A DNA stretch of 64,000 nucleotides from an uncultured Nitrospiraceae bacterium (GCA_963706325.1 CAVPLT010000004.1:1024001-1088000), one strand, 5' to 3'. Shown: positions 8,715 through 57,794, counted from the first letter of the stretch. The notes: a model not told the origin generated them from the sequence alone. Program-made: numbers and translations.

Positions 8715-8740
8715 CACCCTCACGAATCAACGCATCGTGC

Positions 8741-8775
8741 GGCAGCTTTTGCCGCGATCTCCTGCAGAAACTTCC
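8741..8775. promoter_or_regulatory. Tandem putative activator sites upstream of fliK
   Basis: GGCAGCTTTTGCC (8741-8753) and TGCAGAAACTTCC (8763-8775), starts 22 bp apart. Confidence 0.6.
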
Positions 8776-8847
8776 TTTGTCCGGATCCGCTCCTCGGCTG
8801 CCTTCAAGGAAATCGCGCGTGATGCGAGTTTTTATGCGCAGAAGTCA

Positions 8848-8863
8848 TGGCACGGCCTTTGTA
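8848..8863 (+). promoter_or_regulatory. Sigma54 promoter of fliK-flgD-flgE
   Basis: TGGCACGGCCTTTGTA: perfect -24 TGGCACG, variant -12 (TTGTA). Confidence 0.65.
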
Positions 8864-8911
8864 ATGGTGTCCCATGGTTACTCACCGGATCAGGAGCACA
8901 CCGGAACATCC

Positions 8912-38268: not shown

Positions 38269-38284
38269 TGGCATACATCTTGAT
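38269..38284 (+). promoter_or_regulatory. Probable variant sigma54 promoter of the glycosylation island
   Basis: TGGCATACATCTTGAT: good -24, TTGA at -12. Confidence 0.5.
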
Positions 38285-38347
38285 TGTTCTTCCCATGCCG
38301 CCACGCATCCGCCGATGGACTGAGGAAACATTCAGAAGCGCAAAGGG

Positions 38348-39553
38348 ATGACGATTATGACTCTTCACGCCCATAGTGCCGGACTCAATCCTCGATGGTG
38401 TCTTGCACAGGACACGATTGATCAGCAAGACATTGATCGGCTGATCGCCTGGCTGGGCACGTATCCACGACTCACCAAAGGGGCAATCACCCTCGACTTC
38501 GAACGGCAATGGTCGGATTGGCTAGGGCGTCCTTATTCGGTCAACTGCAATTCCGGCTCATCGGCGAACTTACTGATGTATTACGCGCTTCTCCGGTCGG
38601 GTACCTTGCGAAACACAAGCGTCATCGTGCCCAGCGTCGGATGGGTGACGTCCATCGCTCCCGCCATTCAGTTTGGCTTTACCCCCATCATGTGCGAAGC
38701 GGATCCGGATACATTCGGACTCGATCTAAACCATCTGGAAGAACTCCTGAAACGTCATGAACCGCACACGGTCCTGCTGGTGCAGGTGCTGGGGGTCCCC
38801 CATCGCATGACTGAGTTGCAGGCGCTCAAAGACCGTTACGGGTTTTATCTTCTGGAAGACGCCTGTGCTGCAATCGGAGCGGAATACGAAGGCAAGAAAG
38901 TAGGAACCTTCGGCGACATGGCGAGTTTCTCATTTTATTTCGGGCACCAGATGTCCACTATCGAGGGCGGCATGGTGTCTACCAGTGACAAGCGGTTGGC
39001 GGATCTGCTGTTGATGTTGCGCAGCCATGGATGGAGCAAGGACCTGGATCCCGTCAGGCACCAGGCATTGGTCTCGGAGTATCAGATCGACGACTTTCAC
39101 GCTCCCTTTGTGTTTTATGAGCCGGGCTTCAATCTGCGCTCAACCGACTTGAACGCGTTTATCGGCATTGAGCAACTTCGCAAGCTGGATTGGATGACCG
39201 GTCGCCGGCAGGCGAACCACGCGCTGTATCTGGAGAAGCTCGGAGCCCGTTTTTATACGCAACGTCCGCCCAAGGACAGTAAGGTGTCCAGCATCTCATT
39301 CGGCCTCCTTGCGGACTCTCCGGAGCAACGACGACGGATTGTTCGAGCACTTGTCGCCGAAGGAGTTGAGACGCGCATTTTCTCCGCCGGCAACTTAGGC
39401 CTACATCCGTTCTGGATAAACCGCTATGGGAAAGCGAGCTTTCCAATCGCTGATCGAGTGCATTACTGCGGGTTTTTCCTGCCTAATCATGCGTTGATGA
39501 ATGAACAAGACGTAAGCCAGATCGCCCGGGTCGTACTGGAGGCCGCAGGATGA
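38348..39553 (+). CDS. DegT-fold PLP/PMP enzyme, ColD-like NDP-4-keto-sugar 3-dehydratase
   Basis: 'NSGSSANL', 'LLEDAC'; 'SFYFGHQMSTIEGG' has no Schiff-base Lys and carries His, as in ColD/E1-type enzymes. Confidence 0.75.
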   Translation: MTIMTLHAHSAGLNPRWCLAQDTIDQQDIDRLIAWLGTYPRLTKGAITLDFERQWSDWLGRPYSVNCNSGSSANLLMYYALLRSGTLRNTSVIVPSVGWVTSIAPAIQFGFTPIMCEADPDTFGLDLNHLEELLKRHEPHTVLLVQVLGVPHRMTELQALKDRYGFYLLEDACAAIGAEYEGKKVGTFGDMASFSFYFGHQMSTIEGGMVSTSDKRLADLLLMLRSHGWSKDLDPVRHQALVSEYQIDDFHAPFVFYEPGFNLRSTDLNAFIGIEQLRKLDWMTGRRQANHALYLEKLGARFYTQRPPKDSKVSSISFGLLADSPEQRRRIVRALVAEGVETRIFSAGNLGLHPFWINRYGKASFPIADRVHYCGFFLPNHALMNEQDVSQIARVVLEAAG

Positions 39554-39688
39554 GCTTGTCTCTCCCGCAACGCGTGCATTCAGCTGTGGTCTGCCATCTG
39601 CCCGTCATGAGCCTGCGCCCTGTGCCGGTCGCCCCGGCAGAACCACCCCAACCTTACGATCTTCACGCATAAGGGAGCTTGTTCGACC

Positions 39689-40636
39689 ATGACGACACCT
39701 GGAACACATGTGCTCGTGACCGGCGGAGCGGGCTATATCGGCTCCGTGCTCAGCCGACAGCTGCTTGATCGAGGATATCGGGTGACGGTCCTGGATAATT
39801 TTCTCTATCGTCAGAACAGTCTGATGGACTGTTGTGGCGAAGACGGTTTCCAGGTAGTTCGCGGTGACTGTCGCGATGAACGACTGATCACTGATTTGCT
39901 GCGGCATGCGGACATCATTATCCCGCTCGCGGCCCTTGTGGGCGCCCCTCTCTGCGATCGAGACCGGATCGGGGCCTACACGGTAAATTATGAAGCGGTG
40001 CAGCTGCTCTGCAAACTCTCATCGCCTCAGCAACAAATTATTTTTCCCGTCACCAACAGCGGCTATGGGATCGGAACGCCGGGCGTGGCTTGCACCGAAG
40101 ATTCCCCGCTTCGCCCCATCAGTCTGTATGGCGAGACCAAAGTGAAAGCGGAGCGAGTCGTGCTGGATCGTGGCAATGCCATTACCCTCCGTCTCGCGAC
40201 GGTGTTTGGGGTTTCACCTCGAATGCGGATGGATTTACTCGTCAACGATTTTGTCTGGCATGCCGTGCATGACCGGGCGGTCGTCGTCTTCGAAGGTCAC
40301 TGCAAGCGGAACTATATTCACCTGCGGGATGTCGTGCGCGCATTTCTTCACGCGATCGATCATTTCGGTCAGATGAAGGATCGGCCCTACAACGTGGGGC
40401 TAGATGACGCGAATCTGTCGAAGCTCGAACTCTGCCGGGAGATTCAGCGAATCATTCCTCACTTCGTGTCCTTTGAAGCACCCATCGGCGAGGATCCTGA
40501 TAAGCGGGACTACATCGTGTCCAATCAGCGATTACTGGCAACCGGGTTCAAGCCGGATTGGTCCTTGGAGCGCGGGATCCGTGAACTGATCAAGTGTTAC
40601 ACGATTATCAAAGCCGGACAATATGCCAATGTTTAA
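39689..40636 (+). CDS. NAD-dependent SDR, Cj1427-like GDP-D-glycero-alpha-D-manno-heptose C4-dehydrogenase
   Basis: GGAGYIG, YxxxK 'YGETK'; blocks 'ADIIIPLAALVGAPLC', 'RLATVFGVSPRMRMDLLVNDF', 'IGEDPDKRDY' recalled from Cj1427. Confidence 0.78.
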   Translation: MTTPGTHVLVTGGAGYIGSVLSRQLLDRGYRVTVLDNFLYRQNSLMDCCGEDGFQVVRGDCRDERLITDLLRHADIIIPLAALVGAPLCDRDRIGAYTVNYEAVQLLCKLSSPQQQIIFPVTNSGYGIGTPGVACTEDSPLRPISLYGETKVKAERVVLDRGNAITLRLATVFGVSPRMRMDLLVNDFVWHAVHDRAVVVFEGHCKRNYIHLRDVVRAFLHAIDHFGQMKDRPYNVGLDDANLSKLELCREIQRIIPHFVSFEAPIGEDPDKRDYIVSNQRLLATGFKPDWSLERGIRELIKCYTIIKAGQYANV

Positions 40637-40666
40637 GGCGACACCACGCGAGGAAGGACGTGCAGA

Positions 40667-41737
40667 ATGATTATCAGCCGCACACCTTTCCGCATGTCAT
40701 TTTTCGGAGGTGGCACCGATTATCCGGTGTGGTTTCGCGAGCACGGCGGAGCTGTTCTCGCCACGACCATCGATAAGTATTGCTATATCACCTGCCGGCG
40801 TCTTCCGCCTTTTTTCGAGCACCGCACCCGCATCGCCTACTCGCGCATTGAGCTGGTGAACAATCATCAGGAGATCGAGCATCCGGCGGTACGCGGCGTG
40901 CTCAAGTATCTCAATATCAACGACGGTCTCGAAATCCACCACGACGGGGACTTGCCTGCCCGCACGGGACTGGGCTCCAGCTCCTCATTTACAGTGGGCC
41001 TGCTGCACACGCTATACGCATTGCAGCACATCATGCCGAGTAAAGCGCAGCTCGCGCAGGCGGCCATTCATGTCGAGCAGGATGTGCTGGGGGAAGCCGT
41101 CGGGTGCCAGGATCAGGTGCTTGCCGCGCAAGGCAGCCTCTGTCGGGTCAATTTTTTTCAGAACGGGGAGATCGGCCATACGCCGATCGTGATTCGGCCG
41201 GAACGGCTCGCCGCGTTTCAGGACCATCTGCAACTCTACTTCACAGGATTTTCACGGATCGCTTCCGAGGTGGCGCGTGAGCAAATCGACCGGACTAAAC
41301 AACGCCAGGGCGAACTCTTCACCATGCTGCAGATGGTCGAAGAAGGTATTGCCGTGCTCACCGGCAATCGCGATCTGGTTGAGTTCGGAACATTACTGCA
41401 TGACGCCTGGATGCTGAAACGCCGGCTGACCTCCCGCATTACCACCCCGGCCATCGACGATATTTACACCGCAGCCAGATCGGCTGGGGCGCTAGGCGGA
41501 AAATTATTGGGCGCGGGGGGCGGAGGGTTCATGTTGTTCTTTGCAAAACCTGAAGATCACCAGCGGATCCGGCTGGCCTTGCCGGGCTTGTTGCAGGTGC
41601 CGTTCAAATTCGAAGGGCTGGGGAGTCAGATCGTGTTTTATCAGGAGGACCATCTCATGCTGGATGACGTCTGGGCGCAGAGTTCGGCTCAGACGGCCTC
41701 CCAATTAAAAGCCGCTCTCATTGGAAAGGCGGCCTGA
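40667..41737 (+). CDS. hddA: GHMP kinase, D-glycero-D-manno-heptose-7-phosphate 1-kinase (HddA-like)
   Basis: 'TPFRMSFFGGGTD', 'GLGSSS', 'GCQDQ', 'KLLGAGGGGF'. Confidence 0.8.
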   Translation: MIISRTPFRMSFFGGGTDYPVWFREHGGAVLATTIDKYCYITCRRLPPFFEHRTRIAYSRIELVNNHQEIEHPAVRGVLKYLNINDGLEIHHDGDLPARTGLGSSSSFTVGLLHTLYALQHIMPSKAQLAQAAIHVEQDVLGEAVGCQDQVLAAQGSLCRVNFFQNGEIGHTPIVIRPERLAAFQDHLQLYFTGFSRIASEVAREQIDRTKQRQGELFTMLQMVEEGIAVLTGNRDLVEFGTLLHDAWMLKRRLTSRITTPAIDDIYTAARSAGALGGKLLGAGGGGFMLFFAKPEDHQRIRLALPGLLQVPFKFEGLGSQIVFYQEDHLMLDDVWAQSSAQTASQLKAALIGKAA

Positions 41738-41739
41738 CG

Positions 41740-42501
41740 ATGAGCGCGCTTACCGACTGCGATGTCATCATCCTGTGCGGAGGGCTGGGCACTCGGCTTC
41801 AATCCGTCGTGCAAGATCGTCCAAAATCGATGGCCGAAATTCACGGCCGCCCATTCGTTTCTCTGATCGTCGATCACTACGTGCGCCACGGCGCGCGCCG
41901 ATTCATTTTCAGCACGGGTCACCGCGGCGAGATGATCGAAGAATGGTTCGGGCGCCACCGTGGGTCCTACGACACGATGTTTATCCGCGACCCCACGCCG
42001 CTCGGGACCGGCGGAGCCCTGGCACAAGCCATGACATTGGTGCGGAGCAATCCTGTCCTGGTGCTGAACGGGGATTCTCTGTGCGAGATCGATCCGTCGC
42101 GGCTGTTGCGCTTTCATGCGCTCAAACGAGCGCGCGCGACCGTCGCGGTGACCCATCAAGAGGACCGGCCAGACACAGGATCGGTCATACTGGCCGAGGA
42201 CGATCGTGTGCTCTCGATAATTGAAAAACCACGGATTCGCATGAGCGGCTACGACAGTGCTGGAATTTATGTGATTGATCGCGCCATTTCGTCGCTCTTT
42301 CCATCCAACAGTCCTTGGTCGCTAGAACGGGACCTGCTTCCCAAACTGGTGACGCAAGGGTTCTATGGATTCGTGACCGCAAGCTCACTGTACGATATCG
42401 GCACACCCGACCGACTGGCGCGGTTTCGGGATGTCTGGCAAGAGACGTCGTCCCACCTGCCGATACACTCGCGCCACCATGCACAAGGATCGGTCGCGTA
42501 A
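41740..42501 (+). CDS. hddC: Sugar-1-phosphate nucleotidyltransferase (HddC-like guanylyltransferase)
   Basis: 'ILCGGLGTRL..PKSM', 'LGTGGAL', 'LNGDS', 'DIGTP'. Confidence 0.75.
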   Translation: MSALTDCDVIILCGGLGTRLQSVVQDRPKSMAEIHGRPFVSLIVDHYVRHGARRFIFSTGHRGEMIEEWFGRHRGSYDTMFIRDPTPLGTGGALAQAMTLVRSNPVLVLNGDSLCEIDPSRLLRFHALKRARATVAVTHQEDRPDTGSVILAEDDRVLSIIEKPRIRMSGYDSAGIYVIDRAISSLFPSNSPWSLERDLLPKLVTQGFYGFVTASSLYDIGTPDRLARFRDVWQETSSHLPIHSRHHAQGSVA

Positions 42502-43721
42502 TGGCGCCTCGCACCGCACTCGCTGCCTCGCCCGATCACAACCTTTCCTTCTCCGATCGAGGAGAGCGATTGATCGGCCAGGAAATGTTTCGGGTGCTGG
42601 ATCGCGCTCAAACCTTGGAACGCCAGGGCCACTATATTTATCACTTAGAATTGGGCAACCCGCGTATGGCGCCTCCGCCTCAAATTATTGACGCGACCAT
42701 GCAGGCGCTTCGAGCCAAACAACTCGGTTATGCGCCAATGGCCGGCATCAGTGAGTTGCGCGCGGCAGTGGCCGCTCGATATTCACTGCTGACGGGGCAC
42801 CCGTTGACGGATGCTCATGTCGTCATCAGCCCGGCGAATCTTCTTATTCACCAATTTCTCGACATTACCTGCGATCCCGGCGATCGCCTTGTCCTGTTCA
42901 TGCCGGCATTTCCCTCCTACTTGGCCGCGGCCAGCCATTTGGGACTTCATGTCACCGCCATACCGCTGACTGAAGCAGAAGGGTTTCATCTCACGCGCGA
43001 GAGCGTGGAACAGGCACTTTCAAACAGGCCGAAAGCGATCATCCTGAACAACGCCAACAATCCAACCGGAGCCTTGTACAGCCAGGCTATTGTGCAAGAG
43101 CTTACGAGCCGCTGCGAGGAAGCAGGAATTTGGCTCTTGAGTGACGAAACCTACGCCGATCTATCCTTTGACGAGTCCTTCTCCACGCTGGCGTCCTCAG
43201 AGTCAGTCCATGTGGTGGCAATCTCCTCGTTTTCAAAGGTGTTTTCTATCCCGGGATTCCGGACCGGCTATGCGTTGGCCCATGAAGCGGTCACGACAAA
43301 ATTGGCGCTGTCCAATTCAACGCTCTATTCCTGCCTTCCCGCTTTCACTCAACTGGGTTGCCTCGCCGGACTGGGGGTCATGGACAAATACCTTGCGGAG
43401 GTTCGGGCTCGCAGCGCGCGCCTGATTGGCACTTGCGCCGACCAGATCAACCGTTCCGGAGTCTTGCGCTGCCATGCACCGGAGTCGGGATTTTATCTCT
43501 TCATCGACATCGCCAGTACCAATCTTGACGACATGACCTTTTGCCGGCGGCTGCTCGACGAACAACATACGGCTGTCACACCGGGTCGTAGCTTTGGGGC
43601 AAACTACACGTCGTTTATTCGACTGGCTACATGTGGGCAGGAGGCAGATGTTCTCGAAGGCGTCTCACGCACCATCGCTTTTGCGCAGCACGTGGGAGGG
43701 TGCCATGTCCAAGCCGCTTGA
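42501..43721 (+). CDS. PLP-dependent aminotransferase, class I/II
   Basis: 'NNPTG', 'SDETY', 'SFSKVFSIPGFRTGY'; TAATG overlap with the upstream gene. Confidence 0.88.
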   Translation: MAPRTALAASPDHNLSFSDRGERLIGQEMFRVLDRAQTLERQGHYIYHLELGNPRMAPPPQIIDATMQALRAKQLGYAPMAGISELRAAVAARYSLLTGHPLTDAHVVISPANLLIHQFLDITCDPGDRLVLFMPAFPSYLAAASHLGLHVTAIPLTEAEGFHLTRESVEQALSNRPKAIILNNANNPTGALYSQAIVQELTSRCEEAGIWLLSDETYADLSFDESFSTLASSESVHVVAISSFSKVFSIPGFRTGYALAHEAVTTKLALSNSTLYSCLPAFTQLGCLAGLGVMDKYLAEVRARSARLIGTCADQINRSGVLRCHAPESGFYLFIDIASTNLDDMTFCRRLLDEQHTAVTPGRSFGANYTSFIRLATCGQEADVLEGVSRTIAFAQHVGGCHVQAA

Positions 43722-45213
43722 TGTATTGCTCGTGACTCCTCCCAGCCGGGTGCAGGTCTATCAGGATCTGAGCCGGGATCTGGCGGCCATCGAGCCCCCG
43801 GTCTGGTCGGGGTTGATTGCGACCTATCTCCGGCAGCATAGCTGCTCGGTCGCCATCCTTGATGCAGAGGCTCAAGGGTTGAATCACGAACAGACCGCGC
43901 AGCAGATCGCCGCCGTCTCTCCCAGGTTGGTAGTTTTTGTGATCTATGGCCAACAACCGTCGGCCTCCACCCAATGCATGCCGGCCGGCCGGAAGGTTTG
44001 CGAGATCTTGAATACCCTCAGCGACATTCCCACCATGGTCATGGGTACGCATCCCTCAGCGCTGCCACAGCGTACCTTGCTCGAAGAACCCTATACCTAT
44101 GTTTGTCAGGGCGAAGGTCCGGCTACCATTCTCGGGCTGCTGATCGCCTTGCGCGCCCCGCAACATTCCCTGCGTGAAGTTCCTGGCCTATGGCATAGGG
44201 AAGACGGCACTCCGGTAGGGAACGCGCCGGCACCGCTCCTGACGAATCTGGACCGTGATGTGCCGGGCCAGGCTTGGGATCTTCTGGATATGACTCGATA
44301 TCGCGCTCACAACTGGCATTGCTTCGGGAATTTGGATGCGAGATCTCCCTATGCATCGTTGCAGACCAGCTTGGGTTGTCCCTTCACCTGCTCATTTTGC
44401 TGCATCAATGCGCCCTTTACCACGCCCATGTTGCGGACCTGGAGCCCGGACAACGTCATCGGCCAGATCGACCGGCTGGTCCGGGAGTATGGAATCACCA
44501 ACATCAAGATTCCGGATGAGATGTTTGTCCTGAATCGGCGGCATGTGGTCGGCATTTGCGACCGAATCATCCAGCGAGGCTACCGACTCAATATCTGGGC
44601 CTACGCGCGAGTGGATACCGTGCAGGACGAGGTGTTGGCTAAATTGGCTCGAGCAGGATTTACCTGGCTGGGCCTGGGCATTGAATCCGGCAGTCAACAT
44701 GTGAGGGACGGCGTAGAAAAAGGCCGATTCGGCGAACGTGACATCATTGCAACGGTCGACAAAATTCGTTCGTACGGCATTCATGTCGCCGCCAACTATA
44801 TCTTCGGATTACCCGACGATACCGTGGACAGCATGCGGGCGACCCTGGATCTTGCCCTCGCCCTCAATACGGAATGGGCTAACTTTTACTGTGCCATGGC
44901 CTACCCTGGGTCAGCGCTCTACGCGCTCGCGAAACAGAAACAATGGGCCTTGCCGGATGATAGGGGAGGGCCCGGCTGGATCGGCTATTCGCAACATGCC
45001 TACGACAGCCGCCCCTTGCCCACTGAATGCCTTGCGGCCACGGAGGTCTTGGCCTTCCGAGATCGCGCATTTTTAGAATATTTCGGCCACCCGCGTTACC
45101 TGAGTATGCTGCACAAGACCTTTGGGGAGCGCATCGCTGTCCATGTCAAAGAGATGTGCAGTCATCACGTGCGGCGCCGTCATCATGATGTCGCAGTCAC
45201 ACCGGCTGCCTAG
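43705..45213 (+). CDS. Cobalamin-dependent radical SAM enzyme
   Basis: N-terminal B12-binding domain ('EPPVW', 'MGTHPSALP'); CxxxCxxC 'CPFTCSFC'; 'LGIESG', 'YIFGLP'. Confidence 0.88.
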   Translation: MSKPLDVLLVTPPSRVQVYQDLSRDLAAIEPPVWSGLIATYLRQHSCSVAILDAEAQGLNHEQTAQQIAAVSPRLVVFVIYGQQPSASTQCMPAGRKVCEILNTLSDIPTMVMGTHPSALPQRTLLEEPYTYVCQGEGPATILGLLIALRAPQHSLREVPGLWHREDGTPVGNAPAPLLTNLDRDVPGQAWDLLDMTRYRAHNWHCFGNLDARSPYASLQTSLGCPFTCSFCCINAPFTTPMLRTWSPDNVIGQIDRLVREYGITNIKIPDEMFVLNRRHVVGICDRIIQRGYRLNIWAYARVDTVQDEVLAKLARAGFTWLGLGIESGSQHVRDGVEKGRFGERDIIATVDKIRSYGIHVAANYIFGLPDDTVDSMRATLDLALALNTEWANFYCAMAYPGSALYALAKQKQWALPDDRGGPGWIGYSQHAYDSRPLPTECLAATEVLAFRDRAFLEYFGHPRYLSMLHKTFGERIAVHVKEMCSHHVRRRHHDVAVTPAA

Positions 45214-45234
45214 AAACAGAGGGAAGGAGTCTTC

Positions 45235-47073: not shown

Positions 47074-47083
47074 GGGGACCGTT

Positions 47084-50000: not shown

Positions 50001-52444
50001 GTCGCCGCACGACGACTGCTGTCTCGCCATCGATTGCCTATACCAAGCCTCCGATGGTCTCGGTCATTGTGCCGACGTATAACCGGCCTGAACGGTTGCG
50101 TGCCGCGCTCGACAGCGTGAATCGACAACAATATCGGGATTTTGAAGTAATCGTGGTCAATGACGGCACCATTCCGGTCGAATCCGTCGTATCGGACGTG
50201 AACCAGGCCGGGCGCATCACCCTGGTGAACCACGATCGCAATCGGGGGCTGGCCGCGTCACGTAATACCGGCCTTCGTCTCGCCAAAGGCGTCTATATTG
50301 CCTATCTCGATGACGACGACCGATTTCTGCCCGATCACCTCGGCACCCTCGTCGCTTGTCTCGAACGCGGCGAGCACCACGTCGCCTACTCGGATGCCTG
50401 GCGTGTGATCGAGCATCAAGTAAACGGAATCATCGCCGAAGCGGGTCGCGATCGGCCCCATTCCTCTGACTTCTCCGCCTCTCGATTGCTCGTTGAAAAC
50501 TATATCCCGGTTCTGTGCTTGATGCATCGCCGGTCTTGTCTGGATGACGTCGGGTTGTTCGACGAATGCCTGTTCGTGCATGAAGATTGGGACCTCTGGA
50601 TCAGACTCGCTACACTATATGCCTTCGCACATATCCCCCGTACGACCGCAGAATTCACCTGGCGGAGCGATGGATCATCCATGTCCAGTCGCGATCAGGA
50701 TGCCTTCACGCGAACCATGGATATCATTTATCGAAAATACTTTTCTTATACGGCGGGGCATCCGAACATCCTGGCAGCTCAGCGAGAGCGTTTGAAGGGA
50801 ATGAAGGCACGCGTCAGCCCCACCCCGTACCACTGCTCTATCATTATCCCTGTGTGGAACAATATCGCTCTTACGCAGCAATGTCTGATGGCGCTCGCGG
50901 ATGTCACCGAGGGCGCGACGTTCGAAGTGGTCGTGGTCGACAACGGGTCCACCGATGGCGTGCAGGATTTTCTGCAGACGCTCGGCGGAGATGTGCAAGT
51001 CATTCGCAATCAAGACAATCTTGGATTTGCCAAAGCCTGTAACCAGGGCGCGCGGGCGGCGCGAGGGGAGTACCTGGTTTTTCTGAATAACGACACGATT
51101 CCCTTGAACGGATGGCTGACGGCACTGATCGAGGAAGTCCGCACCCATTCAGATGTGGCGGTCGTCGGCAGCAAACTGCTGTACGAAGACGGCACCATTC
51201 AACATGCGGGTGTCGCCTTCTCTCGTGAGTGGTTCCTGCCCTATCACATCTACCGCGGTTTCGATGCCCATGCCGCCAGCGTGTCCCGTCGCCGAGAACT
51301 GGATTGTGTGACCGCGGCCTGCATGCTCGTGCGTCGAGAGGCCTTCGAGGAAGTAGGCGGATTCGATGAAGGGTACCGAAATGGGTTTGAGGATGTCGAT
51401 CTGTGTCTCAAGATTCGGGAGAAAAACCGGAAGATCATCTATCAGCCCCAGAGCGTGCTCTATCATTTGGAGAGCCGCACGCCGGGACGAAAGGCCCATG
51501 ACCTTGACAACAGCCGACGCCTTCACGAACGCTGGGCAGCGTCTTGGTGGCTCGCCGACGAAGATCGTATCCACTTCGAGGATGGGTATGCCCTGCACAC
51601 CTATGTGGATGACGGAAAACTCGGCTATCGCCTCCGCCTCATCGACGATCCTACAACACGAGCGGAACGAGGCCTCGTAGCAGAGGTACAATCTGGCGCC
51701 CATCGGCGGGATCTAGAGAAGGTCGTCGAACTCCTGACACGCGTCGATGAGTGGCCGGCGGATGTGTGGATCCTTCGCTGGGCGGCTCTCCTCTGTCTGG
51801 GGGTCATGCATCCGCGGCTAGCCATTCCGTTCTGGCGACGCGTGCTGATGTTAGAGGAGGATGCGCAAGGCCGCATCGCGCTCGCCAAACATGCGCTCGA
51901 ATCAGAATCCCTCGACGAGGCGGACGTGCATCTGGCCGCCCTGCTGAGGAATGAGCCCTCGCATGGAGAAGGCTGGTTACTGCGCGGGATCGTCGCCATG
52001 CAACAGAATACATACGCAGAGGCGGAAAGCGCCTTTGAACGAGCCAAGCTGTCCGGCGCGGATCCACGCAAGGCATCGCTAGGAATGGTCATGGCCGCGA
52101 TGGGCGCCAACCGATCAGAAAAGGCCTGGGACCTAATACTTCCGCTCTCCGCAGACCACCCGGACGATGAAGAATGCATGCACTGGCTCCTGCGTTGTGG
52201 AACGGCCCTCGAACGGTGGGATGCTGTGAGCTCGCGGCTCACAACCTTTCTCATTCGCAATCCCGGCAATATGGCCTTGCGGTTTGCGCTTGCCGGTGTG
52301 TTGCTCAGATCCGGCAGGCGGACAGAGGCTCGGCGGGAATGTGACATGCTCAGCGCCCTGGATCCTACCTTTGATGGGTTGAGTGAGCTCACGAGAATGC
52401 TGGCCGAACCACCGCCAAAGTTGGTTCCACATCATGCTGCCTGA
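47084..52444 (+). CDS. 1786-aa multidomain protein: SAM methyltransferase + GT-B-like + SAM methyltransferase + GT2 + GT2 + TPR
   Basis: 'LEVGSWAGGS..FVDGDHSY'; 'RVIEAMAAGRPVI'; 'LDVGCGRG..SEVIEHV'; 'SVIVPTYNR..YLDDDD'; 'SIIIPVWN..FLNND'; C-terminal TPR-like helices. Confidence 0.85.
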   Translation: MSHGDTGSNEVTPLDVEYYQFCREQMRPYFGRVMWASQGLPLRHVVMQELVRLEAARHGKNPFHILEVGSWAGGSAVTWAEALARHHRANGRVLCVDPWKPYFDVAKRPAAAVYREMSEALAKDTIYELFLHNIATAGYAGLVLPLRGAATVMLPALPRNYFDLVFVDGDHSYAAVLADITAAAGLIKDGGVLCGDDLERQRFEIDEAYARTQIESDYIRDPRSGHEYHPGVTLAVGELFGEVAHVAGCWAVRKRGTGWERFDMSNVACSPDHIPHHLTRRDPAADREFQGWRERRYRPTSHVVAREPEDHALTRPVSTGRTVPAASAKPRALLIQLEFETWATARPWTYSAAFGVQEGLLANGVECVTVPAIAENPCASPTSWVYHAKQALAGQHFDQVWLWLIHTPLDQAILEWVAELAPVRVGVLMESLRYDAEDYAWAPQLKHRQGQLEAQLPYLTHVLAPDEQDAAELNRHGSANALWWPPMVPERFIIHPSGSPTQSQAVFHGTPYGRRRDWVSHSHLTGRLHCVKAAQPQTKNQRLFDQLQQTAAQYLREGHAVTEAAIHEYVQALQQIRLAEFTEWMAHLLQWPAIVNLPSLAKFYGGRVIEAMAAGRPVISWSIPDHPKNLSLFEPEREILLFQQDDPGGLAQHIDRILHDRPFANALAQQAQNKIRLYHTAERRLQGTLEWIRTGQLPDYGQSTHGDQRTFETATSRLAQHPSTSDAINRRNVRTPQSSLRETTMDQNAFYVDLFVNKPAWSTPDPNPDEAARWSKIASFLECILREARQNNPERTLRILDVGCGRGWLTNLATAYGACEGIEPVAGVIEHARRMFPHLRFEAGTPETLLARSDFKPFDIVLCSEVIEHVPHANKPVFVQQLAQLLTSDGYLVLTTPRGDVWNEWQKIAPPNQPVEDWVTEQQLGQLLSDGGFRHLGLERIPIEVPSLRYFPAATPHDVRSVKLLPIYQVWACRRTTTAVSPSIAYTKPPMVSVIVPTYNRPERLRAALDSVNRQQYRDFEVIVVNDGTIPVESVVSDVNQAGRITLVNHDRNRGLAASRNTGLRLAKGVYIAYLDDDDRFLPDHLGTLVACLERGEHHVAYSDAWRVIEHQVNGIIAEAGRDRPHSSDFSASRLLVENYIPVLCLMHRRSCLDDVGLFDECLFVHEDWDLWIRLATLYAFAHIPRTTAEFTWRSDGSSMSSRDQDAFTRTMDIIYRKYFSYTAGHPNILAAQRERLKGMKARVSPTPYHCSIIIPVWNNIALTQQCLMALADVTEGATFEVVVVDNGSTDGVQDFLQTLGGDVQVIRNQDNLGFAKACNQGARAARGEYLVFLNNDTIPLNGWLTALIEEVRTHSDVAVVGSKLLYEDGTIQHAGVAFSREWFLPYHIYRGFDAHAASVSRRRELDCVTAACMLVRREAFEEVGGFDEGYRNGFEDVDLCLKIREKNRKIIYQPQSVLYHLESRTPGRKAHDLDNSRRLHERWAASWWLADEDRIHFEDGYALHTYVDDGKLGYRLRLIDDPTTRAERGLVAEVQSGAHRRDLEKVVELLTRVDEWPADVWILRWAALLCLGVMHPRLAIPFWRRVLMLEEDAQGRIALAKHALESESLDEADVHLAALLRNEPSHGEGWLLRGIVAMQQNTYAEAESAFERAKLSGADPRKASLGMVMAAMGANRSEKAWDLILPLSADHPDDEECMHWLLRCGTALERWDAVSSRLTTFLIRNPGNMALRFALAGVLLRSGRRTEARRECDMLSALDPTFDGLSELTRMLAEPPPKLVPHHAA

Positions 52445-53627
52445 ACCAGCAGCTGAGAGCCGAGCCCTGGTGATTCAACAGGCACGGTTGGGAGATCTCG
52501 TGCAATCGCTTCCTGCGATTGAGGCCGTGCGAGCATGTTATGCCGATCGTCCAGTGGATCTTCTATGCCCGACCCCCTTGGGACCTGTCCTCGCGAGGTC
52601 CCAAGCCATTCGCCGAATCATACCCTGGGACGGTGGTCAGTGGCGGGTATGGGTCGATCAATGGACGCAGGATCCGGCAGCGACCTTGCGCACAATTCAG
52701 AACTTCATCGCCTCGCTTGGGGACATCGAATATGACCGCGTCTACAATTTGAATCAGCACGCACGAGGCATTTTGATGGCGCATTTGTTTACGAGCCACT
52801 CCGTGGAAGCCAGCCAAAGGACGCAAACGAATTCAGGCGTGAACCCATGGACGCTGTATCTCCGACAGGTGGCCAAGGAGCGTGGAAAAAATCGCGTACA
52901 TCTGGCGGATGCGTGGTGCGGCCTGTGCGGGGTGAAACCGCGTGGCCGTGCGCCTATCTTGGATCTCGAAGGGGCCGCGCTTCCTGAGGATCTCACCCAA
53001 ATCGGCCAACAGAAAGGACTGTGGGTTGCTGTTGTAACCGGGGCAGGGGATTCGGCACGTTGTATTTCGCCCGTTGTGTGGGCTCATTGGATTCGGGAGT
53101 TCCTGACGCAGGTGGATGATGGGCAGGTGGTCTTGATCGGAAGCGGGCAGGAGCGTGAGGCCGGGCAGGCAATTTTGGAAATGAGTCCAACTTTATTGCA
53201 GGGACGCGTATGGGACACGACCGGTCGTACGACGCTCCCTCAGCTCATGACCTTGCTAACCAAGTGCCGTTGGACGGTTGGGGCGGACACTGGACCACTG
53301 CATTTGGCCACCGCTCTCGGTAGCCGTGCGTTGGGACTCTACTTCGCGCGCGCCCGGGTCCACGAAACCGGTCCCTATGGGGAAGGCCATTGGGTCTATC
53401 AATATTCAACCCAGGAGCAGCCAGACAATTGGCCCATCGAGGAGAGTATTGAATTGATATGTGATGGGCGCCTTCGCCCGGCCCCTGGATGGTCCCTTTG
53501 GAGGAGTCACTTGGATCAATGGGGTGTCTGCTTCGAGGACGGCTCCGCACCACACGAGGCTGATCTACAACGAGCCACTGTCTGGCAATCACTTTCTCCC
53601 ACTTTGTATGAATCGGCGGCCGCATGA
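52434..53627 (+). CDS. Glycosyltransferase family 9 (heptosyltransferase-like)
   Basis: 'ARLGDLVQSLP', 'GRTTLPQL', 'ADTGPLHLA', 'ETGPYG'. Confidence 0.88.
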   Translation: MLPEPAAESRALVIQQARLGDLVQSLPAIEAVRACYADRPVDLLCPTPLGPVLARSQAIRRIIPWDGGQWRVWVDQWTQDPAATLRTIQNFIASLGDIEYDRVYNLNQHARGILMAHLFTSHSVEASQRTQTNSGVNPWTLYLRQVAKERGKNRVHLADAWCGLCGVKPRGRAPILDLEGAALPEDLTQIGQQKGLWVAVVTGAGDSARCISPVVWAHWIREFLTQVDDGQVVLIGSGQEREAGQAILEMSPTLLQGRVWDTTGRTTLPQLMTLLTKCRWTVGADTGPLHLATALGSRALGLYFARARVHETGPYGEGHWVYQYSTQEQPDNWPIEESIELICDGRLRPAPGWSLWRSHLDQWGVCFEDGSAPHEADLQRATVWQSLSPTLYESAAA

Positions 53628-55441
53628 ACATATTCAACGAGAACATCACCAGGTTGTCCAGTCGGTATCCGGAGCTGGCAGCCGTCACAAGATCCGCTGC
53701 CGGAGGAGCTCTTACAATCGAACCATCTCGCAAGGGCACCCCCTCGGCGCAGCGATCCGGTCGATGGATTCATAGCGCCTATGATCCCGTTCGTGAAGCG
53801 GACACCTGGGCGAACACCCACGCGCCGCTTTGCCAACCCGGAGAGACAATCGTCATCGCCGGAGTCGGACTGCTCTACCATGTGGAGGCGCTTCGCAATC
53901 GTCTTTCACCGGATTGCTCCATTGCAGTGCTGATTCCCAATATCCAAGAATTCCACGACAGTCTATCGACTCGCGCACTAGGCCTTTGGAGCGAACGCAT
54001 TACCTGGCTTTTCGGAACGCCTTTGGAGAGCGCACAGAAGCTCGCAGCAACCGGTCGGCCTTTGCGCTGTCTCTCCTATACACCGGCCGCTCACCCGGAT
54101 GCCGACTTCCACCAGGCGTTTCAGCAGGTCCTGCGTCGCCATATCGCGAGCCACACCGGAGGCCAACTGACTATTACATTGGTGGGGCCGATTTATGGCG
54201 GGTCGCTGCCGATCGCTCATTATGTGAAGCGCGCGCTTGAAACCCTTGGCCATAAGGTGCAGTGGATCGATCATAGCCTTCATGCAGCGAGCTACGAAGC
54301 TATGGGCAGGCTGAAAGACGCGCGCAATCGGCAGCTGATGCAAAGCCGCATGGCCGAAGTGTTGAGCCAATGGACCTTGGCTTCGCTGGCTGAATCCCCT
54401 CCAGACCTCGTGTTGTCGCTGGCCCAGGCTCCCCTGACATTGCCGGTCTTGGAGCACTTGCGCAAAAAGAATTTTCTGACGGCGATGTGGTTTGTGGAAA
54501 ACTATCGTCATCTCACCTATTGGCAACAGATGGCGCCGGGGTATGACTACTGGTTTGTCTTTCAGCAGGGCCAATGCCCTGGTGCCTTCCGGCAGGCAGG
54601 CGCGAAAAATGTGAGCTATTTGCCGATGGCCGCAGACCCGGCCATCCATCACCCAATGACTCTGTCGGATAAAGACCGACGTGACTATGGGGCGGACGTG
54701 TCATTCGTCGGCGCCGGATACGCCAATCGCCGGCAACTGTTCCCCGCACTCCTCCGGCAACCCTGGTCATTCAAACTCTGGGGGAATGAATGGGAGGGCG
54801 CCGATGATCTTCAATCCGTACTGCAATTGAACGGCACCCGGATCGATACCCTCACGTGCATGAAGGTCTTCAATGCCACAGCCATCAATCTCAATCTGCA
54901 TTCCACCACCGGAGTTGGGCTGGATCCACAGGCGGATTTCGTCAATCCACGCACCTTCGAATTAGCCTCCTGTGGGGCCTTTCAATTGGTCGACCACCGC
55001 TCATTGCTCCAGGAATTTTTCACTGCTCAGGAGATGGTCTCGTTTCGAACCTTTAATGAGGTTCCAGGACTGGTAGGACAATGGTTAGGAGATTCTGCAG
55101 CTCGACAAGCCATGTCAGCTGCCGCTCAGGCACGCGTCTTAGGCGCGCATACCTACGCGCATCGAATGAAGGATCTGCTCTCGCACATCGGTGTCTCCCA
55201 GCCGGATCGAGTCGGCGCTGTCTTGCGAGGCGATCGGCAGCAAGAGGCGTTGCTCACACGTTGCGCGAATGATCCTCCGCTGGAAGCACTCCTCAAGGAA
55301 TGTCCGGCAGGCCAGCGGATCGAACTGAAAGATCTGGCGGCGCGAGTCCGGGCCAAGGGACCTTCGTCGACTCTTAAGCGAGATGAACTCATGGTGCTGA
55401 TGCTGGATGAATATCGGAGTGAGACCCGAGATTTGGTATGA
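53624..55441 (+). CDS. CgeB-type glycosyltransferase with Maf-like N-terminus
   Basis: N-terminal 'HSAYDPVREA...AGVGLLYH'; C-terminal 'YLPMAAD', 'SFVGAGY', 'INLNLH', 'NPRTFELASCGAFQL', 'HTYAHRM'. Confidence 0.78.
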   Translation: MNIFNENITRLSSRYPELAAVTRSAAGGALTIEPSRKGTPSAQRSGRWIHSAYDPVREADTWANTHAPLCQPGETIVIAGVGLLYHVEALRNRLSPDCSIAVLIPNIQEFHDSLSTRALGLWSERITWLFGTPLESAQKLAATGRPLRCLSYTPAAHPDADFHQAFQQVLRRHIASHTGGQLTITLVGPIYGGSLPIAHYVKRALETLGHKVQWIDHSLHAASYEAMGRLKDARNRQLMQSRMAEVLSQWTLASLAESPPDLVLSLAQAPLTLPVLEHLRKKNFLTAMWFVENYRHLTYWQQMAPGYDYWFVFQQGQCPGAFRQAGAKNVSYLPMAADPAIHHPMTLSDKDRRDYGADVSFVGAGYANRRQLFPALLRQPWSFKLWGNEWEGADDLQSVLQLNGTRIDTLTCMKVFNATAINLNLHSTTGVGLDPQADFVNPRTFELASCGAFQLVDHRSLLQEFFTAQEMVSFRTFNEVPGLVGQWLGDSAARQAMSAAAQARVLGAHTYAHRMKDLLSHIGVSQPDRVGAVLRGDRQQEALLTRCANDPPLEALLKECPAGQRIELKDLAARVRAKGPSSTLKRDELMVLMLDEYRSETRDLV

Positions 55442-57102
55442 GCAAACAGGTGCTTCTCATAAACATCACCCGGATGGGCGACCTCGTCCAAATGGGCACG
55501 CTCTTGCAGCGTCTACAGCATGAGTGGCCAGGCGCTGCGGTCGATCTCGTCGTCGACCGACGGTTCGCGTCGGTGGCCAGCCTCCTCCCGCATCTGCGAC
55601 ATGTCGTAGCCTATGATTTTCACGGTCTGGTCGATGAGAGCCGGGCACAAGCGAAGGACGTTGTGACCCTTTTCCAAGACATAACTCGATGGGCAGCGCC
55701 ATTGGTGGAGGCGCAGTACGACCGCGTCATCAACCTGACCTTCAACCGGCGAAGCGGGTTTCTCACTTCCTATGTCGGCGCCAGAGAAATACGCGGTATC
55801 GCGGCCCCGAAGGATGGGGACGTAGCCATTCACAACCCCTGGATGGCCTATCTGACCGACGTGCACAACCAACGTGCCTTCAATCAGTTCAATTTGGTTG
55901 ATATTTATGCATTAGGCGGGAGCGGCCCTGGACCCTTTGCGCCTTTGTCGATTACCGTGCCTCTTAGTACCGACCGGTGGGCACGCGAATTTCTCTCGCC
56001 CTATGGTGCTGGAGACCAGACTACCTGGGTTGCGGTGCAGGTCGGTGCCAGCGATTCAATGAAGGCGTGGCGGCCTGAGTTGTTCGGCCAGACCTTAGCC
56101 AGCCTGAGTAGGCGAACAAAGGTTGGTTATGTTTTCATCGGTACCGAGGAAGAGCGGAAAGTCAGTCTTCTCGCCCAGCGAGCCTATCAACAGGCCGGAG
56201 GAACCGGCCACCTGTGCGAAGCGATCGGCCGGACGGCGCTGCCTCAGTTAGCGGCCTTGTTGAAGCAATGCCGATTGCTCCTGACGAACGACACCGGACC
56301 AATGCATTTGGCGGTGGGGGTGGGGACTCCGGTCGTCGATCTCTCGGTCGGCCATGTGGACTTTCGCGAAACGGGTCCCTACGGGCCAGGCCATTTGATC
56401 GTGCAGCCGGACATGGCCTGTGCGCCCTGTGGATTCGATCAGGTCTGTTTTCATCACGCGTGTAAGGACCGAATTGTGCCGGACCAGATCGCGGCCCTCT
56501 GCGCATATGTACTGAGTGGAGCCGAGTTCCCCGAGGGCACCACCGGGATCAGAATCTATGGCTCTCGGATTGATGAAGATGGGTTGGGAAGCGCCCGACT
56601 TTTAGCGGGACGTGAAGATGCCACGGTCGACTGGTACGGTCGGTTCTGGCGAAGGTTTTGGTTTGAGCAATTCACCGGCACTGCTAGTCAGATTTCGCCG
56701 TGCGAGGGGGGCCCGCAGGATTATGATGAGGCGCTGCAGTGTTTTCATCGTCTCACGCCCCTCGTGCGCGCGCTCGTGTCCTATGCAAGAGAAATGGTGC
56801 GGTTAGCCAAACAGCATCCGTTGCCCGTCTCCGCGTTGCAACAGTTGCAACTCCGTGAGCGCGCAGACCGTCAGCAGGCCGTTACCCTCAGTCTGCAAAG
56901 TCCGTCGACCGCTTCCCTCGCTGTGGCGCTCTTGCGCGACACGCACAATGACGACGGAAACGAGCTGACGGCCATGGTGCTGGCTCGGCTGGCAACCTAT
57001 CAACGATGGCAGGGAAGACTGAACCAGGTTATCACATATTTTAATTCGCTTCGAAACGGCCGAGTGAAGTCACACGCCATCCCCATGGCACGATCTGCCT
57101 AG
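55438..57102 (+). CDS. Glycosyltransferase family 9 (heptosyltransferase-like) with C-terminal extension
   Basis: 'TRMGDLVQ', 'TNDTGPMHLA', 'ETGPYG', 'CAPC'. Confidence 0.88.
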   Translation: MSKQVLLINITRMGDLVQMGTLLQRLQHEWPGAAVDLVVDRRFASVASLLPHLRHVVAYDFHGLVDESRAQAKDVVTLFQDITRWAAPLVEAQYDRVINLTFNRRSGFLTSYVGAREIRGIAAPKDGDVAIHNPWMAYLTDVHNQRAFNQFNLVDIYALGGSGPGPFAPLSITVPLSTDRWAREFLSPYGAGDQTTWVAVQVGASDSMKAWRPELFGQTLASLSRRTKVGYVFIGTEEERKVSLLAQRAYQQAGGTGHLCEAIGRTALPQLAALLKQCRLLLTNDTGPMHLAVGVGTPVVDLSVGHVDFRETGPYGPGHLIVQPDMACAPCGFDQVCFHHACKDRIVPDQIAALCAYVLSGAEFPEGTTGIRIYGSRIDEDGLGSARLLAGREDATVDWYGRFWRRFWFEQFTGTASQISPCEGGPQDYDEALQCFHRLTPLVRALVSYAREMVRLAKQHPLPVSALQQLQLRERADRQQAVTLSLQSPSTASLAVALLRDTHNDDGNELTAMVLARLATYQRWQGRLNQVITYFNSLRNGRVKSHAIPMARSA

Positions 57103-57146
57103 CAACAATACGATGAAGGTGGATATCTTTTTGGAGGAGCCACGTC

Positions 57147-57689
57147 ATGCACATTACCCTTGATGAAGAACAATGGCAGGTATCGGATGAGAGCTCGTTG
57201 ATGGAAATCCTGGCTACGATTAGTGACAGGGCGCAGGCTCAGCATCGCATCGTGACGTCATTAACCATCGGTGGGAAAGCGATCAGCGATCGCGATCTTG
57301 CGCCGGGCTTTCTCAATCAATCCGGCAAGAATCTGGGTGCGGTTCAAGCCATTTCTAAATCGCTTCACTCAATCATTACAGAAGCGAAACATGCGATCGA
57401 TCGGTTTGCCGCCCAATTGCGCAAGGACGGCCAAAGCCTGCTCACCCCGTTACGTTCGGGGTCCGGCCATGTCGGGTCGATCGACAGCTGGCTTGGGCGC
57501 CTGGCGGACTACACGGAGATGTTAGAAGCCGGTCGCACCCAAGGCGTCGCGGGCCTATCAGCTGCCACGCTCCTCCCTTGGATTCAGGAACTGTTAGGCG
57601 CGCGCTCCAGCGCCGACCCGGTTCGTGTCGCCGATGTATTGGAATACGAAATATTGCCTCGCCTCACTGAATCAACCTTGGCCGCTTGA
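57147..57689 (+). CDS. Hypothetical protein (flagellar glycosylation-locus associated)
   Basis: 180 aa; RBS GGAGGAG; C-terminal 'VADVLEYEILP'. Confidence 0.7.
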   Translation: MHITLDEEQWQVSDESSLMEILATISDRAQAQHRIVTSLTIGGKAISDRDLAPGFLNQSGKNLGAVQAISKSLHSIITEAKHAIDRFAAQLRKDGQSLLTPLRSGSGHVGSIDSWLGRLADYTEMLEAGRTQGVAGLSAATLLPWIQELLGARSSADPVRVADVLEYEILPRLTESTLAA

Positions 57690-57766: not shown

Positions 57767-57794
57767 TTAAGTCTTCTTGATATGGCGCCGATAA
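57767..57794 (+). promoter_or_regulatory. Sigma28 promoter of fliC
   Basis: TTAAG-N15-GCCGATAA (perfect -10). Confidence 0.88.

Follow-up and report, generated by a model that had tools for sequence, protein, structure and literature searches.

Overview of the island

The 64,000-nucleotide (nt) stretch considered here (the window; all coordinates are counted from its first letter) derives from an uncultured Nitrospiraceae bacterium (GCA_963706325.1, CAVPLT010000004.1:1024001-1088000) and carries, directly ahead of the flagellin gene fliC, an island of 12 tightly packed plus-strand genes (38348-57689). On the sequence evidence set out below we give about an even chance to the proposal that this island is a soluble, cytoplasmic system making a GDP-linked 3-deoxy heptose with an acyl branch on C4, which would be attached, together with other sugars and methyl groups, to flagellin. 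The host belongs to the genus Nitrospira, and the remainder of the window consists of its flagellar regulon.

The last island gene ends 238 bp ahead of fliC (57927..58754, plus strand), which encodes a flagellin of 275 amino acids (aa) with Flagellin_N and Flagellin_C domains and is the proposed acceptor. The gaps at the junctions from gene 3 to gene 11 range from -17 to +30 bp, and a 135-bp gap follows gene 1. Domain content was read with Pfam, with curated NCBIfam models and their cut-offs, and from the best matches among solved structures (PDB). All seven sugar genes (genes 1 to 7) occur in the order of the window, with a YcgR-like gene ahead of them, in 29 of 40 Nitrospira loci fetched via gene 7, and the other 11 loci break off at contig ends, with no sign of rearrangement; the arrangement of the island is therefore not due to chance. 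We considered and rejected a recent acquisition of the island by horizontal transfer, since its guanine-plus-cytosine content of 57.5% is close to the 56.7% of the genome.

A preliminary description of this DNA had recognised a co-oriented block of about 19 kb directly before fliC, and every domain that it named was found by Pfam, including the full count of six glycosyltransferase (GT) and two methyltransferase domains. Its remarks that the window lacks both a 4,6-dehydratase and a C4 reductase (the remaining window genes are flagellar) and that no nonulosonate gene is visible (NeuB, by Pfam, within the window) also hold. The same is true of its ColD-like, Cj1427-like and YerE-like assignments, detailed in the following sections, and its designation of the block as a flagellar glycosylation island is supported by homology and comparative context.

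Sugar-nucleotide genes

Gene 1 (38348..39553, plus strand) encodes a DegT-family protein (PF01041, fold type I, E 2.2e-71, residues 39-395), and the second ATG, at 38357, probably marks its conserved start. Among solved structures the protein matches ColD best (2gms, E 2.5e-49; 171.6 bits against 129.8 for E1), and no E3-like gene was found in the island by Pfam. Residue His200 aligns with the histidine that is replaced by asparagine in the ColD mutant entry 3b8x, which we take to be H188 in ColD numbering. Histidine occupies this Schiff-base position in five ColD-like relatives as well (L078, L079, L102, L109 and L129), and lysine is found there in the aminotransferase of locus L131. Gene 1 is thus likely a ColD-type, histidine-type sugar 3-dehydratase that uses pyridoxal or pyridoxamine 5'-phosphate (PLP/PMP), with C3 deoxygenation of a nucleoside diphosphate (NDP)-4-keto sugar as its predicted reaction.

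The neighbouring gene 2 (39689..40636, plus strand) encodes an extended short-chain dehydrogenase/reductase (SDR) that matches the solved structure 6vo6 almost end to end (E 8.9e-113, residues 7-314 against 4-311), with about 56% identity counted from the alignment over 308 residues. The next best solved SDR reaches only E 2e-23. Both the GGAGYIG (GxxGxxG) and the YGETK (YxxxK) motifs align with the same motifs of 6vo6, an entry that is presumably Cj1427, in keeping with its title. We regard gene 2 as a likely Cj1427-type NAD-dependent sugar-nucleotide C4 dehydrogenase, for which specificity for GDP-heptose and recycling of NADH by 2-oxoglutarate are predicted. Cj1427 itself holds its NADH tightly and recycles it with 2-oxoglutarate (PMC10680097).

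The next two genes point to the formation of an activated sugar. Gene 3 (40667..41737, plus strand) has the N- and C-terminal GHMP kinase domains of Pfam, and its best solved matches are the heptose kinases 3k85, 4usk and 4n3o; by this best-hit resemblance its product is a putative HddA-like sugar kinase, though outside the curated HddA family. Gene 4 (41740..42501, plus strand) encodes a sugar-1-phosphate nucleotidyltransferase (NTP_transferase) resembling both HddC and mannose-1-phosphate guanylyltransferases, with its best solved match among Yersinia HddC-type entries annotated as 6-deoxy-D-mannoheptose pathway protein (6jq8/5xhw, E 1.3e-30). A front end following the logic of GDP-heptose synthesis is supported by the resemblance of gene 2 to 6vo6 and of gene 1 to ColD.

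Proposed branching and donor genes

Gene 7 (45235..47073, plus strand) encodes a thiamine diphosphate (ThDP) enzyme with the three expected domains (PF02776, PF00205 and PF02775, the N, M and C domains). Among solved structures it lies nearest to 8rph (E 1.5e-101, 344 bits), which is the YerE-like enzyme JanthE (PMC12188165). Second among the solved structures is 5ahk with 267 bits, presumably PpYerE, and the plant, yeast and bacterial acetolactate synthase structures score at most 245 bits. The GDG motif lies within IGDGGFNMN, where JanthE has CDG. Gene 7 stands four genes past the Cj1427-like and ColD-like genes, an order kept in 29 of 29 complete Nitrospira loci. These matches support a YerE-like ThDP carboligase, with a sugar C4 ketone as the predicted acceptor.

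Two genes precede it: gene 5 (42501..43721, plus strand; the open reading frame (ORF) opens at 42315, but 42501 is the likely start), a class I aminotransferase, and gene 6 (43705..45213, plus strand; the ORF opens at 43594 and 43705 is the likely start), a radical S-adenosylmethionine (SAM) enzyme with a B12-binding domain. The domain match of gene 5 to Aminotran_1_2 is strong (E 7e-52), and among solved structures it comes closest to aspartate aminotransferases of subgroup Ib. The acyl groups that YerE-like enzymes add range from C2 to C8 and stem from 2-oxo acids (PMC12247030), and the donors are made by enzymes encoded in the same cluster (PMC9306805 and PMC12247030). Pyruvate, named as the donor in the preliminary description, is accordingly not required.

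Relatives of gene 7 with 57-77% identity occur in distant lineages, with Methylophilaceae, Bacteroidales and Candidatus Liptonbacteria among the source names, and 14 aligned relatives have a mean column identity of 78%. The neighbours recorded in 49 related metagenome loci are B12 radical SAM enzymes, Cj1427-like SDRs, ColD-like proteins, GHMP kinases, NTP-transferases, GmhA-type SIS proteins, NUDIX proteins and further SDRs. Directly upstream of the ThDP gene stands a gene for a PanB-like ketopantoate hydroxymethyltransferase or one for a class I aminotransferase, both of them enzymes that yield 2-oxo acids. Among the 28 non-Nitrospira loci with at least 3 kb of DNA upstream of the ThDP gene, 13 have a PanB-like gene and a radical SAM gene there, four have an aminotransferase (at least 40% identity) and a radical SAM gene, seven have a radical SAM gene only and four have none of these partners; PanB-like and aminotransferase genes are found together in none (0/28). 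The PanB-like enzyme (L078, L102, L109 and ten further loci) probably makes a side-chain donor and not pantothenate.

Because these two kinds of 2-oxo-acid-forming enzyme never occur together beside the ThDP gene, gene 5 probably supplies the 2-oxo-acid donor. The split of partners matches the published scheme in which enzymes of the cluster make the donor of the YerE-like enzyme (PMC9306805). Gene 5 had earlier been cast as a sugar aminotransferase. We rejected this role: the enzyme is of the aspartate aminotransferase type, is mutually exclusive with PanB-like enzymes in the relatives and is lost together with the YerE-like gene in the sister genomes described below.

Conservation in Nitrospira and a variable slot before fliC

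The cassette is strongly conserved within Nitrospira. Gene 7 is 86-98% identical in public records named Nitrospira, Nitrospiraceae and Nitrospirota, along with one named 'Nitrosospira' and one named 'bacterium', and the identity is 93% in N. defluvii, a cultured species whose loci L005 and L126 contain the island. A synteny search, suggested in the preliminary description, did find the cassette beside fliC in other Nitrospira genomes: fliC follows the island in five of five further genomes, and three genomes read through have the ThDP gene, the large GT gene, a GT9 gene, the CgeB-like gene, a second GT9 gene, gene 12 and fliC in succession. Two of these three have a second radical SAM gene between the ThDP and large GT genes. 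An extra B12 radical SAM protein of 541 aa, 30% identical to gene 6, is encoded at 408-2033 in L126 (N. defluvii) and at 235-1860 in L128.

A sample of 151 genomes of the family was screened for orthologues of gene 7, defined by an E value of 1e-200 or lower. Since the genomes are related, the resulting counts are not independent and no statistic is attached to them. An orthologue was present in 29 genomes and fliC in 91. All carriers but one (28 of 29) have fliC as well; in the one without it, G229, gene 7 lies only 10.3 kb from a contig end. In 26 of the 29 the two genes share a contig at a distance of about 11-14 kb.

Three fliC-positive genomes that were read lack a gene 7 orthologue and nevertheless keep the scaffold of large GT, GT9, CgeB-like, GT9 and fliC genes; L130 and L131, two of the three, also have gene 12 ahead of fliC. 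Two, G269 and G317, belong to the same genus as the host. The front end of G269 (L129) resembles that of the window closely (ColD-like 82%, Cj1427-like 86%, kinase 86% and NTP-transferase 60% identity), and G317 (L130), where the retrieved DNA stops shortly after the NTP-transferase gene (61%), behaves alike. Genes 5 to 7 are replaced in both by a split transketolase, with the N part followed by the Pyr/C part, and a different B12 radical SAM enzyme with 53% identity to gene 6. The split transketolase regions span 11181-18744 in L129 and 13310-19539 in L130. The third genome, G433 (L131), is from another genus and has the same scaffold with a lysine-type DegT aminotransferase, a 4,6-dehydratase-like SDR and a GT/methyltransferase protein, its sugar genes being placed between HD-GYP/fliW/flgL and fliC.

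The transketolase variant has thus lost the aminotransferase along with the YerE-like enzyme, and it retains a radical SAM enzyme. This joint loss makes gene 5 more likely a maker of the donor, and because the radical SAM enzyme stays, the pattern fits an aminotransferase that serves the donor of the YerE-like enzyme and a radical SAM enzyme that acts on the sugar or the branch. No comparative argument is stronger than the presence, behind one shared front end, of two different ThDP enzymes that form carbon-carbon bonds, and it indicates the 4-keto sugar as the acceptor of a carbon branch.

Transferase genes and gene 12

Gene 8 (47084..52444, plus strand) encodes a 1786-aa protein with, in order by Pfam, Methyltransf_24, a GT-B piece (Glyco_trans_1_2/1_4), Methyltransf_23, two GT2 domains and TPR. 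The C-terminal two thirds are kept in relatives and the N-terminal part varies; the counterparts measure 1440-2185 aa owing to this variable part. Genes 9 (52434..53627, plus strand; ORF opening at a GTG, 52383) and 11 (55438..57102, plus strand) encode divergent GT9 glycosyltransferases, the latter with a C-terminal extension of about 200 aa. They score 60.9 and 67.3 bits on PF01075, respectively, against 140-166 bits for the lipopolysaccharide (LPS) GT9s of the same genome, and the best solved match of gene 11 is 3tov (E 8.5e-13). Gene 10 (53624..55441, plus strand) encodes a CgeB-like transferase with DUF3880 and Glyco_trans_1_2 domains, for which a sequence search gave no solved relative. 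At E values up to 1, Pfam has no significant match for gene 8 residues 201-563, the first 287 aa of gene 10, the last 204 aa of gene 11 or the whole of gene 12.

Gene 12 (57147..57689, plus strand) encodes a conserved protein of 180 aa, which is found at the same position directly before fliC, with 40-75% identity, in five of six relatives examined. In L129, a 189-aa ORF at this place does not match it. An Atlas lead, DUF8042/TP0873_N, reached a score of 0.90. Instead of serving the glycan, the product of gene 12 may be associated with the filament.

None of the 12 island proteins has a hydrophobic segment, the maximal 19-residue Kyte-Doolittle mean staying below 1.6 throughout, and FliP, FliR and FlhA from the same window, used as controls, reach 2.2-2.65. 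A flippase, a polymerase and an undecaprenyl-phosphate transferase are thus all missing from the island. Neither Pse/Leg genes (NeuB, PseB/C) nor a Maf gene was found in it with Pfam and NCBIfam. Such seemingly soluble machinery suits glycosylation of a protein in the cytoplasm.

Flagellar setting and likely promoters

Upstream of the island the window encodes a sigma-54 activator followed by fliF, fliG, fliH, fliI, fliK, flgE, fliM, fliP, fliR, flhB, flhA and flhF, then a MinD-like ATPase, fliA, flgF, flgG, flgA, flgH, flgI, flgJ, flgM, flgN, flgK, flgL and fliW. Next come two genes on the opposite strand, for a hybrid kinase and an HD-GYP protein, then one for a YcgR-like PilZ protein, and the island follows; downstream of it, fliC is succeeded by fliD and fliS.

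The sequence TGGCATACATCTTGATT (38269-38285, plus strand; TGGCAT-N5-TTGAT) is the sole fully invariant block of the intergenic region ahead of gene 1 in nine of nine aligned Nitrospira sequences, with variable flanks. It lies about 65-80 nt before gene 1 and differs from TGGCAC-N5-TTGC by two mismatches. A scan of the whole window for the sigma-54 consensus with one mismatch gave six matches against 4.95 expected, which is uninformative alone; matches at that level include 24099 (about 45 bp before flgF) and 12376. The island motif is likely a sigma-54-type promoter by virtue of its conservation, and not of the consensus scan. A candidate sigma-28-like promoter of fliC, TAAG-N15-GCCGATA (57768..57793, plus strand), has one mismatch to the sigma-28 consensus TAAA-N15-GCCGATA.

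Three further observations concern the flagellar genes. The FliH homologue (5290-6339) has an N-terminal receiver domain (Response_reg 27-134, FliH 208-336), which is an unusual fusion. A second flagellin gene, 99% identical to the fliC of the window, lies on another contig of the genome (G000:C7:331189-332013). In other genera of the family (G125 and G253 of genus g5, G065 of genus g3) the flagellin open frames are about 626-660 aa long, and only their N-terminal part resembles the 275-aa flagellin.

Proposed pathway

In the pathway that we propose, gene 3 would phosphorylate C1, the 7-phosphate would be removed by the sole GmhB of the genome, a fusion with an LPS heptosyltransferase, and gene 4 would make GDP-heptose. 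Gene 2 would oxidise C4 in the manner of Cj1427, probably recycling NADH with 2-oxoglutarate, and gene 1 would remove the C3 hydroxyl as ColD does, using glutamate and releasing 2-oxoglutarate and ammonia; the 2-oxoglutarate released could in turn feed the Cj1427-type reaction. The expected product of genes 2 and 1, GDP-D-glycero-3-deoxy-4-keto-heptose, has been made in vitro by the Raushel laboratory with an artificial combination of Cj1427 and the HS:5 C3-dehydratase (PMC10680097). Gene 5 would convert an amino acid into a 2-oxo acid, which gene 7 would decarboxylate in order to add the acyl anion to the C4 ketone, yielding a tertiary alcohol; as the ketone would be consumed by the ThDP enzyme in this way, no C4 reductase would be needed. 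Gene 6 would modify the branch or the sugar by radical chemistry, and genes 8 to 11 would carry out the transfer to flagellin and the methylation of the glycan ahead of export. Transcription of the island would start at its sigma-54-type promoter, and that of fliC at a separate one of the sigma-28 type.

A more far-reaching version is offered tentatively. In it, an undescribed 3-deoxy-4-C-acyl-branched heptose would be placed on Nitrospira flagellin by a conserved ThDP/B12 radical SAM module that was recruited into the sigma-54 flagellar regulon, with the aminotransferase supplying the donor. The module would sit in a plug-in slot, filled in sister genomes by a split transketolase or an amino-sugar cassette, and, being 57-77% identical across phyla and paired with PanB-like enzymes elsewhere, it would define a widespread and so far overlooked class of branched heptoses.

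Several findings weigh against a branched flagellin heptose. Among the papers listed by a literature search, none was on glycosylation of Nitrospira flagellin. The fact that 63 of the 91 fliC-positive genomes lack the ThDP orthologue means that the cassette is accessory and that flagella do not need it. In L077, a Nitrospira-like metagenome locus (4700-8866), a YcgR-like gene, a short ColD remnant, an aminotransferase, a radical SAM gene, the ThDP gene and GT genes are present, and genes 2 to 4 (Cj1427-like, kinase and NTP-transferase) are absent at this place. Outside Nitrospira, a flagellin gene was seen in none of the 49 related metagenome loci (0/49, within the fetched DNA, many loci being short), and in L078 the presence of Wzi, Wzz and SLBB marks a locus of the capsule type; it follows that the sugar module as such is not flagellar. 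The usual substrate of GT9 enzymes is ADP-heptose, and the GT9 genes persist in the amino-sugar variant of the slot. The island has no YerF-like reductase for the branch ketone. For gene 6, the B12-binding and Radical_SAM domains stand, but no curated radical SAM family is reached (best NCBIfam model BchE, 131 bits against a cut-off of 481) and the best solved match is AprD4 (6fd2, E 2.5e-19), a diol dehydratase that does not methylate; the methylase role is not secured, and gene 6 may encode a C-methylase or a radical dehydratase.

The absence of gmhA and gmhB from the island belongs to the same side of the balance, as both would have to be supplied by other parts of the genome. These contain a gmhA-like gene at C1:432300, whose 200.8 bits fall short of the cut-off of 209, and a gene for HldE domain I beside kdsA and kdsB. 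The only GmhB of the genome is fused to a GT9 heptosyltransferase in the LPS core locus (L043, 5594-7291; G000:C7:811593-813290). For its capsular GDP-heptose, C. jejuni likewise borrows GmhB from the LPS cluster (PMC10680097). The kinds of sugar gene missing from the window (4,6-dehydratase, C4 reductase and nonulosonate genes) are represented in the genome beyond it, and they include GDP-mannose 4,6-dehydratase homologues at C7:831056 and at C4:1105084, the latter 17 kb past the window end, and a NeuB gene at C7:847199.

Alternative interpretations

The same flagellar island and chemistry could act on a hexose such as GDP-mannose, giving a 3-deoxy-4-C-branched hexose that is perhaps lengthened or methylated by the radical SAM enzyme, a reading that we judge unlikely. 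It arises from the family scores, which, like the missing gmhA and gmhB, count against a heptose: gene 3 reaches 116.5 bits on HddA (NF049969), its best NCBIfam model, against a cut-off of 600, and gene 4 reaches 119.7 bits on HddC (NF049965) against a cut-off of 300 and, slightly higher, 127.5 bits on the mannose-1-phosphate guanylyltransferase model. With both equivalog cut-offs missed and the mannose-1-phosphate model ahead, a hexose substrate has to be reckoned with. The HddA/HddC-like label of the preliminary description consequently survives as a best-match resemblance to heptose kinases and HddC, and not as membership of the curated families. Some B12 radical SAM enzymes, GenK for example, C-methylate sugars, as a hexose route might use. 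However, the best NCBIfam and solved matches of the kinase are all heptose kinases, gene 2 is about 56% identical to what we take to be a GDP-heptose dehydrogenase (6vo6), and GmhA-type SIS genes lie inside the module in the relatives L078 and L079 and, by tblastn, also in L076, L090 and L097. Moreover, GDP-mannose is normally made via ManB and ManC, with no need for a GHMP anomeric kinase.

Comparably improbable is that the ThDP enzyme, the aminotransferase and the radical SAM enzyme build a separate acyl or amino-acid-derived group that is O- or N-attached, the 3-deoxy-4-keto sugar being processed in some other way. The trio of PanB-like enzyme or aminotransferase, radical SAM enzyme and ThDP enzyme does travel as a unit, also where no close ColD-like gene is present (L074, L106, L110 and L120), and gene 7 resembles acetolactate synthases as well, with 384 bits on the equivalog model (cut-off 538). 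Its nearest solved relatives are nonetheless YerE-like (JanthE first, 5ahk second), Pfam detected no acyl, amide or ester ligase in the island, and there is neither a C4 reductase nor a lysine-type sugar aminotransferase to deal with the 4-ketone. The slot is occupied in the sister genomes by a split transketolase, a type of enzyme proposed to branch keto sugars (PMC12247030, section 2.3).

A third reading, in which the island makes its activated sugar for use in LPS, in capsule or in some other glycan of the cell surface and lies beside fliC for historical reasons, would accord with the non-flagellar glycan loci of the relatives and with the LPS-type family GT9, but is the least probable of the three, given the placement of the island within the flagellar regulon behind a conserved sigma-54-like motif, its lack of membrane proteins, the fliC neighbourhood in 26 of 29 carriers with a sole fliC-less carrier that is limited by its assembly, a transferase scaffold that stays fixed before fliC while the sugar cassettes swap, and an LPS core locus elsewhere with its own, much better-scoring GT9s.

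Overall, the branched deoxy-heptose pathway of the preliminary description is retained in so far as homology and context support it; the role given to the aminotransferase and the assignment to HddA and HddC are where it falls short.

Comparison with known systems

The branched-sugar systems closest to the proposed heptose island are those of yersiniose A (Yersinia pseudotuberculosis; DdhA-D, YerE and YerF) and of its relatives with long branches, erwiniose, caryophyllose and gastriose. It would have in common with the yersiniose type a histidine-type PMP 3-dehydratase that makes a 3-deoxy-4-keto NDP-sugar and a YerE-like addition of an acyl group from a 2-oxo acid to C4, with donor enzymes encoded in the cluster (PMC9306805 and PMC12247030). 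Yersiniose-type pathways use CDP-3,6-dideoxy-4-keto-D-glucose, obtained via a 4,6-dehydratase and E1/E3, and serve LPS. Unlike them, the island has a GDP-heptose-like front end with a Cj1427-type dehydrogenase and a ColD-type enzyme, lacks a 4,6-dehydratase, E3 and a YerF-like reductase, has an aminotransferase rather than an aldolase as the proposed supplier of the donor, and lies in a flagellar context. A 2025 review of ketone-accepting ThDP enzymes contains none of the words flagell-, heptose or GDP.

For the front end, the nearest counterpart is the capsular GDP-heptose system of C. jejuni (GmhA, HddA, GmhB, HddC, Cj1427 and the HS:5 C3-dehydratase), with which the island shares a Cj1427-type dehydrogenase (about 56% identity), a C3-dehydratase dependent on PLP and glutamate, an HddA/HddC-like pair and a GmhB borrowed from LPS synthesis (PMC10680097). 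In C. jejuni a 4,6-dehydratase precedes the C3-dehydratase and reduction of the ketone follows, the mixture of Cj1427 with the C3-dehydratase being artificial (PMC10680097). In the island, by contrast, Cj1427-type and ColD-type genes are natural neighbours, there is no 4,6-dehydratase or C4 reductase, a ThDP enzyme follows, and the proposed target is flagellin and not capsule.

Flagellin glycosylation islands are established in Pseudomonas, Campylobacter, Aeromonas and Caulobacter, where sugar genes and soluble transferases, some with TPR, stand beside flagellin and vary between strains. The present island differs from these in having no Pse/Leg or Maf genes, in a predicted sugar of another class, and in an unusual transferase set comprising the 1786-aa multidomain protein, two divergent GT9s and the CgeB-like protein. 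Among the papers listed by our literature searches we found no flagellin glycan with a branched sugar, nor a heptose sugar of such a type; in the one paper that mentions both flagellin and yersiniose, yersiniose is an O-antigen sugar.

The split transketolases behind the ColD/Cj1427 front ends of G269 and G317 resemble those of miharamycin and amipurimycin biosynthesis. Split transketolases have been proposed to transfer hydroxyacetyl groups to keto sugars, and 13 cases are predicted, all from Streptomycetes and secondary metabolism and none of them characterised (section 2.3 of PMC12247030). Those of the sister genomes would differ from the published cases by their host, Nitrospira, and by their flagellar setting.

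Each component on its own is thus of a known kind, from the flagellin glycosylation island to the ColD-type dehydratase, the Cj1427-type dehydrogenase and the YerE-like carboligase, and the gene 7 subfamily may already be listed in an in-silico survey of YerE-like clusters. What appears to be new is the natural pairing of Cj1427-type and ColD-type enzymes without a 4,6-dehydratase, the presence of a YerE-like enzyme on a GDP-heptose-type front end, and the flagellar setting with interchangeable branching modules.

Biological significance

If the proposed pathway is true, the product would be the first flagellin glycan with a carbon-branched sugar, and the island would provide the first case in nature of the route that combines Cj1427 with a C3-dehydratase, so far an in-vitro mixture only. 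YerE-type branching would at the same time extend from the CDP-dideoxyhexoses of LPS to GDP-heptoses. The very conserved, uncharacterised ThDP subfamily with its defined partner enzymes is of use to biocatalysis, and the split transketolases of the sister genomes would be the first outside Streptomyces in a sugar-branching context. Nitrospira are key nitrifiers of wastewater and soils, and the island, if the pathway holds, points to flagellar surfaces that vary between their strains. Such variation could affect recognition by phages and predators and, more speculatively, attachment.

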